A stretch of 40,286 nucleotides of DNA. Source: Enterococcus phage EFC-1. Numbering within the stretch: the first letter of the stretch is position 1; the number at the start of each line of letters is the position of its first letter. Made by a program: the position numbers and the translations under genes. Below the pieces are notes generated by a model. That model had not been told where the DNA came from and did no database searches. It worked only from the letters and a program-made list of their open reading frames with translations. Positions 3,726 through 27,312 of this stretch are shown one piece after another. The DNA lies in the sequence record KJ608188.1; one strand, written 5' to 3'.

Positions 3726-4304
3726 ATGGCAAAATATTACCACGTTAAAAAGCATGAAGATTACGAAAGTTTAATGGAATTTTTAGAGTTTCAAGGGTAT
3801 AGATGGTATGGTGGTGGACTCCCAACTCAGAATAACTTTTGGGAGGTTTACAAGACGAAAACGGTCATAAAAGCTGATGTAAATAAATTGTTGACTTACG
3901 GAGAAAAGCGTTATTTTGAAGAGTTTGAAAAGCTAAAATCTACTGATTTTCTTGATTGGGAATCCACTATGCTTTATTCAATGGCTAATATGGCTAATGG
4001 TGCAACTGCTATTATGCTCGCTGCTAGCAAACGTACGGTTCAAATAACAACTGACTCACTTCGACGATTGTCTGATGCATTGAACAGAATGCAAAAAGAA
4101 AAGAAATTTGTAATTTCATTACCTGATTTAAAAACAACCGATGGTGAAACGCAATATTTAAGTTTGAAAAATGGCTGTTGGTTTGCTAGTCGAAAAAATA
4201 CTCGGTTGAAACAACGATTTACAGAATCAGAATTACATGAGATTGTTCCTAGATTTTATCAGAGCTTGGCGATAGAGGTGAAAGAACATGACAGTGAAGA
4301 TTAA
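3726..4304 (+). CDS. hypothetical phage early protein (192 aa)
   Basis: Long intact ORF; no family recognised. Confidence 0.45.
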   Translation: MAKYYHVKKHEDYESLMEFLEFQGYRWYGGGLPTQNNFWEVYKTKTVIKADVNKLLTYGEKRYFEEFEKLKSTDFLDWESTMLYSMANMANGATAIMLAASKRTVQITTDSLRRLSDALNRMQKEKKFVISLPDLKTTDGETQYLSLKNGCWFASRKNTRLKQRFTESELHEIVPRFYQSLAIEVKEHDSED

Positions 4305-23062: not shown

Positions 23063-23995
23063 ATGAAGAAAAAACAATTAATGAAAATGGATATTCAAAT
23101 GTTTGCTCAAACATGGAATCCAGACAACGTCACAGTATTAGAGAAAAAGGATGGAACAATTCCAGATAAGTACAACACTTTAATTTTAAAAGATGTGATG
23201 GAAAACTCTAAATTAATGCAATTAGCTAAATATGAAGAAATGGACAGCAAAGAAAAGAAATTCGAATACTTTGCAGAAGGTCCCGGAGCATACTGGGTTG
23301 GTGAAGGTGATAAGATTAAAACGTCTAAACCTAAATGGTTAAACGTAACAATGACTGCGAAAAAAATCGGTGTTATTATCCCAGTTTCTCGGGAATATTT
23401 AACTTATAAGATGTCTGATTTCTTTACTCAAATGCAACCAAAAATCGCAGAAGCATTTTATAAGAAAATTGATGCGGCTACTATCCTTGATAAAGAAAAT
23501 CCATTCTCTCAATCTATTGAAAAATCTGTCATTGCAGCTAGTAATGTAATTGAGGGCGACTTGACATATGACAACATTTTAGCATTAGAGGATTTGCTTG
23601 GAGAAGGTGAATACGATCCGAATGCTTTCATTTCTAATCGTAAGAATCGTACAGTGTTACGTGAAGCAAGTAAAAAAATTGGTGACACAACTCAATTTAT
23701 TTATGATCGTGTCAGCAATACTATTGATGGACTACCTGTAGCAGATCTAAAATCTATGGATAAGGGAAACCTTTATACTGGTGATTTTGATTACTTGCGC
23801 TATGGTATCCCATTTAACATTAATTTCAAAATTTCAGAAGAAGCTCAATTATCTACTCTAACGAATGAAGACGGTACGCCTGTCAACTTGTACGAACAAG
23901 AATTGGTTGCTTTACGAGCTACAATGGATATTGGTTTCATGGTCATCAAAGATGAAGCATTTGCTAAGATTCAACCAAAAGCTGCGGGGGAGTAA
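23063..23995 (+). CDS. major capsid protein
   Basis: 310 aa, follows the scaffold, RBS AGGAGGAAA. N-terminus carries an L27-like Prp cleavage motif DIQMF|A. Confidence 0.7.
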   Translation: MKKKQLMKMDIQMFAQTWNPDNVTVLEKKDGTIPDKYNTLILKDVMENSKLMQLAKYEEMDSKEKKFEYFAEGPGAYWVGEGDKIKTSKPKWLNVTMTAKKIGVIIPVSREYLTYKMSDFFTQMQPKIAEAFYKKIDAATILDKENPFSQSIEKSVIAASNVIEGDLTYDNILALEDLLGEGEYDPNAFISNRKNRTVLREASKKIGDTTQFIYDRVSNTIDGLPVADLKSMDKGNLYTGDFDYLRYGIPFNINFKISEEAQLSTLTNEDGTPVNLYEQELVALRATMDIGFMVIKDEAFAKIQPKAAGE

Positions 23996-24057
23996 CTAGC
24001 CCTGTTGTCGGAAAAGTAACACCGACAACAAATGGGGCGACAATCGAACTAACTTAG
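23968..24057 (+). other. conserved -1-frame peptide (…SPVVGKVTPTTNGATIELT) overlapping and following the capsid gene 3' end; candidate programmed frameshift extension
   Basis: The -1 frame is open from 23968 and ends with TAG at 24055-24057. It is 68% nt-identical to the corresponding element after the major tail gene, with six purely synonymous codon differences in this frame. Confidence 0.4.
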
Positions 24058-25088: not shown

Positions 25089-25474
25089 TTAAAACAAGAG
25101 ATCAATCAATCTTCGATGAAGTGTATAAGAAGTGTCAATCACTGGGCTATGAAACCTACGATTATAAACCTATGAATGATGTAGGTTATCCATTTGTCGA
25201 ATTAGAAGATACTCAGACACTGCACCAAGCCAACAAAACTGATATTAAAGGTTCGGTTACATTGAATCTATCTGTATGGGGATTGGCAAAAAAACGTAAA
25301 CAAATATCGGATATGGCTTCAGCAATTTTTGCTGAGGCTCTATCTATTTCTGAAACGGAAGGTTATTATTGGTCGCTAAATATCCAATCAAGCGGTATTC
25401 GGTTAGTAGATGACATTTCGACTAACACAACATTGAAGCGGGCAATGATATCTTTAGAATTCAAAATACTATAG
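25085..25474 (+). CDS. tail completion / tail terminator-like protein
   Basis: 129 aa, coupled, position before the major tail gene. Confidence 0.4.
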
Positions 25475-25489
25475 AGAGAAGGAATATAA

Positions 25490-26020
25490 ATGGCTAATGA
25501 AGCAAAAGTAGCGGCTAAAGGTATTGATATTATTTTACTTTTCCGTTTGTTAAAAAAATCAAAAGAGGAACCAGCATGGAAATTAGCTTTCCAGACAGAA
25601 CATGAAAATACAAAAACCAAAGATAGTGACTCTGTGGCCACTAAAGATGGTCCGATTCGCATCCCAGGATCATTGGAAATTGATTTTTCGGCAACATCTA
25701 TTCTATCAGTCGGTGATCCGTATGTTGACCAGCTAGAAGAAGCTTTAGACAATGACGATATTATTGAAATCTGGGAAATCAACAAAGCAGAAAAAGGCAC
25801 AGGAGATAATGCTGACAAGTACAAGGCAACCTATTACCAAGGATATGTAACATCATTTGGTAAATCGCCTAATGCTGAAGACACCGTAGAAGTTTCATTA
25901 GAATTTGGTATCAATGGTAAAGGCGCAAAAGGATTTGCAACATTAACTGCTGATCAAGAAGAAGTAGTTCAATATGTCTTCAAAGATACGACTATTGAAA
26001 CAGCTGATCCGGGAAAGTAG
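25490..26020 (+). CDS. major tail (tube) protein
   Basis: 176 aa, strong RBS GAGAAGGAA, position. A GGGAAAG slippery heptamer overlaps its last codons. Confidence 0.6.
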   Translation: MANEAKVAAKGIDIILLFRLLKKSKEEPAWKLAFQTEHENTKTKDSDSVATKDGPIRIPGSLEIDFSATSILSVGDPYVDQLEEALDNDDIIEIWEINKAEKGTGDNADKYKATYYQGYVTSFGKSPNAEDTVEVSLEFGINGKGAKGFATLTADQEEVVQYVFKDTTIETADPGK

Positions 26021-26082
26021 ATAGCCCTTCTGTGGGAAGTGTAACTCCTACAGTCGATGGGGCTTCTATTGAATTAAGCTAA
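26008..26082 (+). other. conserved -1-frame peptide (…SPSVGSVTPTVDGASIELS) following the tail tube gene, reached via GGGAAAG (26011-26017); in frame with the downstream Ig-like gene across a single TAA
   Basis: G GGA AAG in the correct register (0-frame codons gga/aag). The -1 frame opens at 26008. TAA at 26080-26082. The ATG at 26098 of the Big_2 gene is in the same frame. Confidence 0.45.
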
Positions 26083-26097
26083 GAAAGGAAAATAAAT

Positions 26098-26556
26098 ATG
26101 GTGGATACTTTTAAAATTTATAAAGGCCAAACCGAAGTTGTTTCTGGCACATCACCTTTAACTATAACAGGAATGGAACCTAACACCTCTGCGCCAGTTG
26201 GTGAGTACCAAGTAACTCGTGTTGTTAATGGGAAAGAATCAGAGCGAGTAGATATTCCAGCTTTTAAAACATTGTCTATTGCTGTAACTGGCTTAGAGTT
26301 TTCTCCTAAAACATCAACAGCAGATGCGGGTACTGCAGGTAGCCGACAAATCACAGCAACTGTCTTGCCTGAAAATGCAACCAACAAAAAAGTAACCTAT
26401 AAGATTACGCCTGAAACAGAAGGTCTTGCTGTCTCTGAAACAGGAAATATTACTTGGACAGAAGCGGTACCGTCTGGTGTTTATACCACAACAGGAACAA
26501 CAGAGGATGGTAAAAAAACAGCTCAACACACCTTAACATTGAATAATCAAGCTTAA
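26098..26556 (+). CDS. Ig-like (Big_2-type) domain protein, probable tail tube decoration
   Basis: SIAVTGLEFSPKTSTADAGTAGSRQITATVLPENATNKKVTYKI is a Big_2-like bacterial Ig fold signature. Confidence 0.55.
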   Translation: MVDTFKIYKGQTEVVSGTSPLTITGMEPNTSAPVGEYQVTRVVNGKESERVDIPAFKTLSIAVTGLEFSPKTSTADAGTAGSRQITATVLPENATNKKVTYKITPETEGLAVSETGNITWTEAVPSGVYTTTGTTEDGKKTAQHTLTLNNQA

Positions 26557-26570
26557 AATATAAATTTAGA

Positions 26571-26597
26571 GGGCAGCTTAGCGGCTGTCCTTTTCTT
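26571..26597 (+). terminator. intra-operon stem-loop/terminator (7-bp stem GGGCAGC/GCTGTCC, T-rich tail)
   Basis: GGGCAGC ttagcg GCTGTCC TTTTCTT between the Ig-like gene and the tail chaperone gene. Confidence 0.4.
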
Positions 26598-26611
26598 ATG
26601 GAGGAAAAGAC

Positions 26612-26962
26612 ATGCAAATCGAAATTAAAGGAAAAAAATATAACTGTATTTTTGGAGTCAAGTTTATTCGTGAATTGGATAAGCAGCATGGGGTAGTTCG
26701 TAATGATGTGAATCTTGGAATGGGGTTAACAACATTATTACCGCAGCTAGTAAGTGGAAATATCGTTGTTCTATCTGATGTACTTTACACAGCTACTATT
26801 ACAGAAAAAAGTAGACCTTCTAAGGATGAAGTAGATGAGTTTGTTGAAACTGTTGATGATATTGAGGCGTTATTTGATGAAACGTTGAAAAACTTAGAAG
26901 AAAGCAATGCGGGAAAGTTAACGGTCAGAAATTTCAAGAAAGCTCTGATGGAGAACAAGTAA
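26612..26962 (+). CDS. tail assembly chaperone (gpG-like)
   Basis: 116 aa directly upstream of the tape measure. Contains G GGA AAG at 26911-26917 in the 0-frame register. Confidence 0.6.
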   Translation: MQIEIKGKKYNCIFGVKFIRELDKQHGVVRNDVNLGMGLTTLLPQLVSGNIVVLSDVLYTATITEKSRPSKDEVDEFVETVDDIEALFDETLKNLEESNAGKLTVRNFKKALMENK

Positions 26963-27312
26963 GAGAGGAACTAAGCTCAGCTGAAGCTTATGAAAATATT
27001 CTTATTAATTGTTTTCGTTACCTAGAAATTACTGATTTATCAGAAATCGAACGAATGACTTTGTATGAATATGAAGTTAGGCTATTGGCGTTTCAGTTAA
27101 AAAGACTTGACCATGAAAGAGACCTCTATCTCCAATCTTGGCTAAATAACCAAATTAAGGCGACTAAAGGTAAAAAATCTGAACCTTATTATAAGGAATT
27201 CAATAAGTTTTTCAATTATGAAGAACGAGAGAAGCTTATTTTGGGTAAATCATTAATTGATGAAAAAGTTGATATAGGAGCAATTGATTTATTAAGAAAA
27301 GCAAATAAGTAG
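26612..27312 (+). CDS. tail assembly chaperone frameshift fusion (gpGT-like) via -1 slip at GGGAAAG 26911-26917
   Basis: The -1 frame is open from 26881 through the track ORF 27055..27312 to the stop at 27310-27312. Classic G/GT arrangement. The internal ATG at 27055 is probably not an independent start. Confidence 0.5.

Follow-up and report, generated by a model that had tools for sequence, protein, structure and literature searches.

Phage SPP1 produces a sub-stoichiometric longer form of its major tail protein (MTP), gp17.1*, by a +1 frameshift at the end of the gene, adding an FN3 (fibronectin type III) domain that lies outside the tube (PMC8718954). In Lactobacillus phage A2 (gp5A/5B and gp10A/10B) and in Listeria phages A118, A500 and PSA, -1 or +1 frameshift extensions containing immunoglobulin (Ig)-like material are found on the major capsid protein (MCP) and the MTP (PMC5009743). 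The survey of Fraser et al. 2006, as far as it is cited in PMC5221750 and PMC5009743, describes Ig-like domains on phage structural proteins that are often added via frameshifts and are presumed to adhere weakly to surface carbohydrates. Here, we analyzed the 40,286-nucleotide (nt) sequence of Enterococcus phage EFC-1 (KJ608188.1; the window), a temperate Enterococcus faecalis siphovirus, in which the MTP gene has a short -1 frame extension, the tag, and is followed by a gene for a 152-residue Ig-like protein, the Ig protein. The sequence comparisons lend good support to two programmed frameshifts, by which a tag is added to part of the MTP and of the MCP, and to an independently translated protein consisting of an FN3 domain without strands A and B and a Big_2 domain. 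On balance, we favor a three-part decoration system in which the Ig protein docks in trans on the tagged subunits by fold complementation. The arrangement is conserved and apparently an undescribed variant of frameshift-mediated Ig decoration.

As in the SPP1-, A2- and PSA-type systems, recoding occurs at the 3' end of genes for abundant virion proteins, here those of both the MTP and the MCP. Like in SPP1 the last MTP codons are affected, and two relatives, L072 and L073, even use a +1 site, CCC_TAA; like in A2, A118, A500 and PSA programmed frameshifting lengthens two proteins of one phage, the MCP as well as the MTP. In contrast to those systems, no complete Ig-like or FN3 domain is contiguous with the structural protein, since the 21-residue extension ends at a stop codon in every lineage examined, with relatives down to 42% identity. 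Whereas the whole FN3 domain resides in one chain with the MTP in SPP1, only its putative strands A and B (21 aa) are added here, and the remainder of the FN3 domain together with Big_2 would be the product of a separate gene. Likewise, each gene in A2, A118, A500 and PSA receives a complete extension, whereas the short tags found here are paralogous and a single downstream gene would supply the domain for both. As in the systems of the Fraser survey Big_2 is associated with the MTP or the MCP, but the covalent C-terminal fusion of that model, as relayed by the citing papers, differs from the free-standing Big_2 protein found here, which has its own start in every lineage.

The MTP (tail tube) gene of the window (25490-26020, + strand as all features below) encodes 176 aa, matches PF06199 (E 1.5e-17) and phrog_238 (E 3.4e-65), and ends with GAT CCG GGA AAG TAG, the 0-frame TAG being located at 26018-26020. 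Abutting this stop, G_GGA_AAG (26011-26017) is a canonical X_XXY_YYZ slippery heptamer for -1 slippage in the correct phase, GGA and AAG being 0-frame codons. From 26011 the -1 frame reads GK VDSPSVGSVTPTVDGASIELS, followed by TAA (26080-26082), ERKIN and the ATG of the Ig gene at 26098. The tag coding region thus comprises 26017-26082 (VDSPSVGSVTPTVDGASIELS and TAA), gives a 197-aa MTP-tag product and is matched by a hidden Markov model (HMM) of the tag with 41.3 bits (E 7e-12). A frameshift-stimulating hairpin is predicted at 26016-26070, with core stems pairing 26023-26037 with 26046-26064 and starting 5 nt past the heptamer; its free energy is -24.8 kcal/mol (z -2.94) and none of 200 shuffled sequences was as stable. 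RNAalifold and pair counting revealed that the CCC/GGG clamp of this hairpin is invariant across 22 tag regions while the inner stems vary by lineage. Covariation in these regions is suggestive, with 10 of 500 shuffles reaching the observed score and slid controls scoring equally high.

We then compared this locus with its relatives. The 1.3-kb stretch 25400-26700, used for nucleotide comparison with phages, is 98% identical to vB_EfaS_IME197 (IME197) and 96% identical to phiEf11, and the MTP is 97-99% identical to the MTPs of these two phages. We also read the upstream DNA at 80 IMG/VR loci encoding relatives of the Ig protein; they comprise a close clade of 37 sequences with 93-98% identity and wider relatives down to 42%, from which 20 representatives served for frame and spacer counts. 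The exact GGGAAAG-TAG is present in 32 of the 37 close-clade assemblies although the preceding codon varies (CCG, CTG, TCG), and the tag frame is open with the same end point in all lineages. In the remaining 5 of the 37 the extension is in frame with the MTP gene, a state reached by one change in the phiEf11 type (GATCCAGAAAAAGTA) and by another in L009. Both types give a 197-aa MTP, a form that makes up a database cluster of 159 sequences (P0001), and their existence indicates that the extension is a real coding sequence.

A second tag is located at the end of the MCP gene (23063-23995; 310 aa in the open reading frame (ORF) list, annotated as major capsid protein in IME197), which ends with GCG GGG GAG TAA. 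Here the recoding site and tag span 23986-24057, with a G-run at 23986-23990 and a -1 frame reading GG VTSPVVGKVTPTTNGATIELT up to TAG at 24055-24057, so that the MCP-tag product counts 331 aa. The tag HMM matches this region with 37.0 bits (E 1.6e-10) and the downstream hairpin has a z of -2.3. Being a paralogue of the MTP tag, VTSPVVGKVTPTTNGATIELT is followed by the gene for a head-tail adaptor and not by the Ig gene, and it is unannotated in IME197 and phiEf11. The two tags are the only matches of the tag HMM in the window (41.3 and 37.0 bits), the next-best, non-tag match reaching 3.9 bits. For the tagged products the predicted peptides are VDSPSVGSVTPTVDGASIELS (after ...ADPGK), VTPTTNGATIELT and AAGGVTSPVVGK.

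The extension belongs to a family of peptides of about 21 residues with the pattern ..P.V..VTPT.DGA.I.L[ST]* (asterisk, stop), the amino acid sequence of which is conserved although the tags stand behind unrelated genes and are reached via different recoding signals. The -1 sites are G_GGA_AAG, G_GGA_AAC, G_GGA_AAA, C_CCA_AAA, A_AAA_AAA and, most often, G_GGG_GAG; the C_CCA_AAA motif, found in L037-L059, is what we take to be the A2 motif. As +1 sites we found, besides the CCC_TAA of L072 and L073, TTA_CCC_AGC_TAA in a Staphylococcus aureus Triavirus, and in the MTP of phiEf11-type phages, in L009 and in Kayvirus Gp155 the tag is simply in frame. Wherever a relative has its tag in a shifted frame, this tag begins at the last codons of the structural gene. 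Judged from these alignments, recoding is selected.

The Ig gene (26098-26556) encodes 152 aa, and phrog_341 aligns with it from end to end (positions 1-150 of 154). Its Shine-Dalgarno sequence (SD) AAGAAAGGA (26081-26089) overlaps the tag stop and ends 8 nt before the ATG. The earlier note on this DNA, made from the sequence alone, had called this SD weak, but with AGAAAGGA matching 8 bases of the Firmicute consensus AGAAAGGAGG at that distance it is a good one. The same note had labeled the protein Ig-like (Big_2). This label holds for the fold, while PF02368 scores 19.9 bits, slightly under the Pfam gathering score of 22.8; precomputed Pfam assignments for relatives do list PF02368. The AlphaFold2 (AF2) model of the Ig protein has a predicted local distance difference test (pLDDT) score of 93.8, and its best Foldseek match in the PDB is 7quz, a Big_2-CBM56 crystal structure (E 1.6e-6, 37% identity), so that the modeling supports a Big_2 fold despite the sub-threshold score. 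Big_2 comprises residues 62-144 (26281-26556 including the gene end) according to PF02368, AF2 and Foldseek. The Foldseek matches are dominated by this domain and by tandem Ig proteins, with nothing specific to the N-terminal domain (residues 1-60, 26098-26277), the N-domain.

Homology to the N-domain of L072 and strand gaps in the AF2 model point to an FN3-like N-domain without strands A and B. Alone, the L072 N-domain matches Pfam fn3 at positions 32-82 of 84 (27.5 bits). The tags of L072 (PKQPVNLEASTTTDTVTLTWD) and L073 (PKKPVNLKASDTTETSITLTWD) are patterned like FN3 strands A-B and contain the conserved Trp, and concatenation of tag and N-domain extends the match to fn3 2-82 in L072 (31.1 bits) and to fn3 2-83 in L073 (49.0 bits, E 7e-13), the tag thus supplying positions 2-31. 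The N-domain of the window itself matches the RGI_lyase beta-sheet domain at positions 34-80 of 86. With a profile of 17 concatenations of tag and N-domain, the window first, the best PDB match was the consensus FN3 domain 4u3h (FN3con; E 2.6e-4, profile positions 4-72), with the tag on strands A-B and FKIYKG on strand C, indicating that the gene boundary lies in the B-C loop. In the AF2 model of the Ig protein residues 18-36 form no strand except for a two-residue bridge at 31-32. They align with FN3 strand E, which pairs with strand B in a complete FN3 domain, and the model therefore fits an absence of A-B. In the AF2 model of the 197-aa MTP-tag product residues 162-197 are without secondary structure at a pLDDT of ~30, compared with 70-86 in the tube core. 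Taken together, the N-domain appears to be an FN3-type domain that begins at strand C, and the tag would correspond to the missing strands A-B.

In a database-wide profile search with tag plus N-domain, which yielded 283 proteins, the best 120 matches are limited to the Ig part, with 66-75% of the query covered and lengths of 68-163 aa (mostly 145-165), and none of these 120 is an unsplit version of tag and N-domain. As a separate observation, in P0012 (233 aa) an MTP is naturally fused in frame, via an acidic linker, to the distal part alone of an FN3-like N-domain (..ISVTGVAEGASPLAITGLEPES..), with no Big_2.

We traced the wider occurrence of the system by tblastn against phage records and by a search for contigs encoding relatives of the Ig protein. 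Where siphovirus loci extend far enough, the tag HMM matches twice at a distance of 2-2.5 kb, once behind the MCP gene and once behind the MTP gene. Two tags are present irrespective of which one precedes the Ig gene, namely the MTP tag in the window, L037-L057 and L078-L082 and the MCP tag in L058-L077. For a reverse search we used a degenerate DNA pattern for VTPTTDGA, which gave 96 loci, 17 of them chance matches. All 39 two-tag loci contain the truncated-FN3 (Ig) gene, and among the 96 loci none has a strong tag with enough downstream flank but no Ig gene; the strong tags without a detectable Ig gene are all too near the downstream end of their locus to judge. The type of tag tracks the type of N-domain, TLTWD occurring with YNVYRN, GVIIDM with EYIVYKG, and SAxVSAE with LKVYKG. 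Bacillaceae prophages carry the system as well, one of them (L272) with two tags. A scan of genome contigs for host range with a pattern back-translated from the Ig alignment was uninformative, as the matches listed were generic Big_2 domains of Bacteroidota. The tag HMM misses the tags of S. aureus phages, which are too diverged, and we found these tags by reading frames.

In the S. aureus Triavirus phiSa2wa_st5 (L163; NC_055046.1, locus 1700-1830 and 3860-4015) GGTTCNTTACCCAGCTAA terminates the MCP gene and likewise the MTP gene, and the +1 frame encodes a tag in each case, ..PAKPQKVNVTAKAKSAVISAE and ..PANPQNVEVAVNSKSATVSAE, both ending at a stop; the phage also has a 152-aa Ig gene. The likely slip, from CCC_AGC to CCA, is not known as a shifty stop. 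Staphylococcus phage 812 (L164; Kayvirus, NC_029080.1, 114215-115624) has a chain of three consecutive genes. Gp155 ends in frame with the tag ..SAPKNVQVTPKEDGADVSAE and a stop, Gp156 consists of a truncated FN3 domain, Big_2 and a C-terminal tag (..APADVTVEPGENSADITV and stop), and Gp157 has a truncated FN3 domain alone, an order that suggests head-to-tail complementation. A myovirus prophage of Geomicrobium sediminis (L273; Logan SRR18706634_10) combines the Ig gene with a tagged capsid gene; at this locus no tag follows the sheath or tube genes, the tube being hidden under the sheath. In L075 (IMGVR_UViG_3300012836_000003) Big_2 is joined in frame to the C-terminus of a long capsid-like ORF, which is the classical cis arrangement, and no truncated-FN3 N-domain was matched there.

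In the mechanism we propose, a fraction of the ribosomes that reach the end of the MTP gene would slip by -1 on G_GGA_AAG, aided by the hairpin 5 nt downstream, extend the protein by the 21 residues VDSPSVGSVTPTVDGASIELS and terminate at TAA 26080. Slippage of this kind on GCG_GGG_GAG_TAA, where the MCP gene ends, would add the paralogous tag VTSPVVGKVTPTTNGATIELT. Translation of the 152-aa Ig protein would start independently, at an SD and ATG of its own, with residues 1-60 being of FN3 type from strand C onwards and the tag representing the missing strands A and B. By completing the FN3 fold, free Ig protein could dock non-covalently, in trans, on tagged tube and capsid subunits, so that Big_2 would be displayed on head and tail. 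Occupancy would be set by the frameshift efficiency and would be complete for an in-frame tag such as that of the phiEf11 MTP. The docking of the Ig protein on the tag is the step that we infer, and it is predicted to be probable from the split of the FN3 domain. Whether the design extends in this form widely among phages of Bacillota, i.e. those of Enterococcus, Staphylococcus (including PVL-type Triavirus and Kayvirus) and Bacillaceae prophages, is an even call: it would be a widespread and portable decoration by a naturally split FN3 domain, in which exposed structural proteins receive the A-B tag by programmed frameshifting or in-frame fusion and one free Ig protein with strands C-G joins any tagged subunit of head and tail at a dose set by slippage, and in which the Kayvirus proteins may chain head to tail.

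Data from virions are available for phiEf11, the MCP of which gives two bands of 38 and 41 kDa, ~3 kDa apart, for which a 21-aa -1 extension was proposed (PMC5221750). This extension, IEAPKVESVIPTTDGASIVLS, belongs to the tag family. The bands are consistent with the tagging model but limited in what they reveal. The phiEf11 MTP is the in-frame form and says nothing on a frameshift of the MTP. Compared with 26030-26053 of the window, its in-frame tag (L002:2100-2185) has GGAAAG instead of GGGAAG and ACATTC instead of ACAGTC, and according to the alignment with the predicted fold the two substitutions together break two pairs of the inner hairpin stem. The disruption of the stem fits a constraint that was relaxed once no shift was needed, although this is a single case. 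We also considered a covalent, SpyTag-like capture by an isopeptide bond and rejected it, because the Asp/Asn that would be the reactive residue of the tag is replaced by Thr or Gly in part of the lineages and the phiEf11 bands are unlike the masses of MTP plus Ig protein or MCP plus Ig protein.

Several points weigh against tagging and docking as proposed. On the RNA side, G_GGG_GAG is not a canonical tandem-slip heptamer, and the Pro CCC and Gly GGG codons of the tag coincide with the hairpin arms, so that an RNA constraint could explain part of the tag conservation. As to the fold, tag and N-domain of the window itself are too diverged to reach Pfam fn3, and the FN3 assignment of the window rests on clearer relatives and on a profile match that is modestly significant (E 2.6e-4); a shallow alignment may account for part of the tag's low pLDDT. 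Finally, the proteomics of phiEf11 did not include the Ig protein (ORF16) and resolved nothing below 27 kDa, and the 197-aa MTP (21.5 kDa) ran at 28-30 kDa, which the authors could not explain (PMC5221750). This band is also unlike an adduct of MTP and Ig protein (~38 kDa).

The earlier note had observed that the tail-tube extension, TAA 26080-26082 and ATG 26098 share one reading frame, and all coordinates and frames proved correct, the ATG lying 15 nt beyond the TAA. From this it had proposed that an MTP-Ig fusion design was split by one stop codon, leaving either an independently initiated protein and a short frameshift tail, or a fusion by low-level readthrough of the TAA, or a recent nonsense mutation of a long form, and it had named comparison with relatives as a way to decide. 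In these relatives the extension always ends at a stop, and the Ig gene is found in any of the three frames relative to the extension, a finding of the kind that the note had given as a refutation: only 4 of the 20 representatives have both in frame (three of the window's clade and L074) and 16 do not, with a chance expectation of 1 in 3. The spacer between extension stop and Ig start varies from 1 to 40 nt, being 33-40 nt in L072, L073 and S. aureus, while the Ig gene starts at the same residue (M-x-FKIYKG) in every homologue and an SD precedes the ATG in all representatives. A stop, an SD and an ATG of its own, and an arbitrary frame argue that a TAA-readthrough fusion is not the conserved design; the position of the in-frame TAA relative to the Ig ATG is, on this comparison, a coincidence without a role. 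Readthrough giving a covalent MTP-tag-ERKIN-Ig fusion of ~38 kDa as functional long form is suggested by the coinciding frames and the single intervening stop in the window's clade, but we regard it as very unlikely, as the S. aureus case has three in-frame stops, the paralogous capsid tag has no Ig gene behind it, and frameshift and readthrough would both be needed, so that the yield would be tiny. TAA is, moreover, the least leaky bacterial stop. The idea of a decaying arrangement, in which a recent nonsense mutation or a sequencing error split an ancestral MTP-linker-Ig long form, agrees with the FN3 domain indeed being interrupted at this point. It is refuted by the comparative data and hardly merits any weight: in every lineage of the Enterococcus, Staphylococcus and Bacillaceae phages the domain is broken at this point by a stop, an SD and an ATG, the exact site is common to the 32 independent close-clade assemblies, no unsplit homologue is among the best 120 of the 283 profile matches, and the Ig ORF is intact and conserved. 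What is borne out is the independently initiated protein with a short frameshift tail, as far as that claim goes, by the common start, the SD and the end-to-end match of phrog_341. The slippery heptamer, the tag on the capsid gene and the FN3 domain formed jointly by the extension and the Ig N-terminus had been overlooked.

The main rival to docking is a tag that is produced and has a function other than binding of the Ig protein, possibly in assembly or stability of tube and capsid or in contact with another partner; its look of a half-domain would be the relic of an old gene fission, and the Ig protein would be attached elsewhere or not be virion-bound. We assign this a minority chance, well short of even, for all evidence for synthesis of the tag is equally compatible with it and the N-domain is modeled confidently (pLDDT 86-94) even without the tag. 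It has to contend with the strict co-occurrence of tag and truncated-FN3 gene in both search directions, with tag types that track N-domain types, with the untagged sheathed tube of the myovirus prophage, and with the Kayvirus chain, in which proteins ending in a tag are followed by a gene starting with a truncated FN3 domain; a half-domain of 21 residues would also have to keep the FN3 A-B pattern without a structural reason. The peptide might, on the other hand, be a by-product without function, slip site and hairpin acting in translational control, for example by bringing terminating ribosomes to the next SD for coupling. In favor of this, 1-16 nt separate the tag stop from the start codon that follows in most lineages, the stop of the window's MTP tag overlaps the SD, and the hairpin arms coincide with conserved codons. 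This explanation is improbable, as the peptide is conserved in +1 lineages with other nucleotide contexts as well as in phiEf11 MTP, L009 and Kayvirus Gp155, where it is in frame and no shift is needed. Besides, 33-40 nt separate the tag from the Ig gene in L072, L073 and S. aureus, and behind some MTP tags there is a terminator-like hairpin with a spacer and no coupled gene. Docking of the Ig protein by completion of the FN3 fold thus remains the reading that we prefer.

Other known systems share single features with this one. The gpG/gpT shift of TP901-1 uses the heptamer GGGAAAG (PMC4493119). Like the gpG/gpGT shift of lambda and that of TP901-1, the MTP site has an identical heptamer and would share the tandem-slip mechanism and a ratio-setting role; unlike here, those shifts concern another gene pair for another purpose, the tail assembly chaperone, and add a long extension. 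In T4 Hoc and T5 pb10, as far as the accounts in PMC5292684 and PMC7602432 describe them, Ig-like-domain proteins are displayed on the capsid and, as here, encoded separately, but they use a dedicated capsid-binding domain on the folded lattice and no recoded capsid tag. A review of decoration proteins makes no mention of frameshift or strand complementation, and we found no published description of the split arrangement in the literature, including reviews of MTPs and decoration proteins, with coverage of subscription journals being incomplete and a prior mention therefore possible.

Completion of an incomplete Ig-type fold by a short strand peptide from another chain is the principle of donor-strand complementation in chaperone-usher pili and of engineered split Ig or FN3 tags of the SpyTag/SpyCatcher type. 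The likeness to these is inferred from sequence here, and the phage tags would differ from them in contributing two strands (A-B) instead of one and in being delivered by ribosomal frameshifting; they have no conserved isopeptide candidates.

If the docking is true, it would explain the second 'major tail protein' gene and the unannotated gaps of 60-90 nt after the capsid and tail-tube genes in hundreds of genomes of Gram-positive phages, and it would represent a new viral way to attach accessory proteins, i.e. a split domain reassembled in trans with a stoichiometry set by recoding. It would also offer a natural pair of peptide tag and catcher for the display of cargo on phage heads and tails. 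The system is relevant to therapeutic Enterococcus and Staphylococcus phages, in which the Ig-like domains presumably act in adhesion to surfaces or mucus. Should the docking prove wrong, the conserved recoding sites, paired on the MCP and MTP genes, would still be a solid annotation result: none of the records of IME197, phiEf11 and the S. aureus phage phiSa2wa_st5 annotates a frameshift here, and both frameshift products are missing from them, an omission that would be corrected.

Downstream of the Ig gene, the gene for a tail assembly chaperone (PF12363, 26612-26962) is overlapped by an open -1 frame that runs into an 85-aa ORF (27055-27312). No obvious canonical heptamer was identified in this region (26612-27312), the arrangement of which is the usual gpG/gpGT layout.

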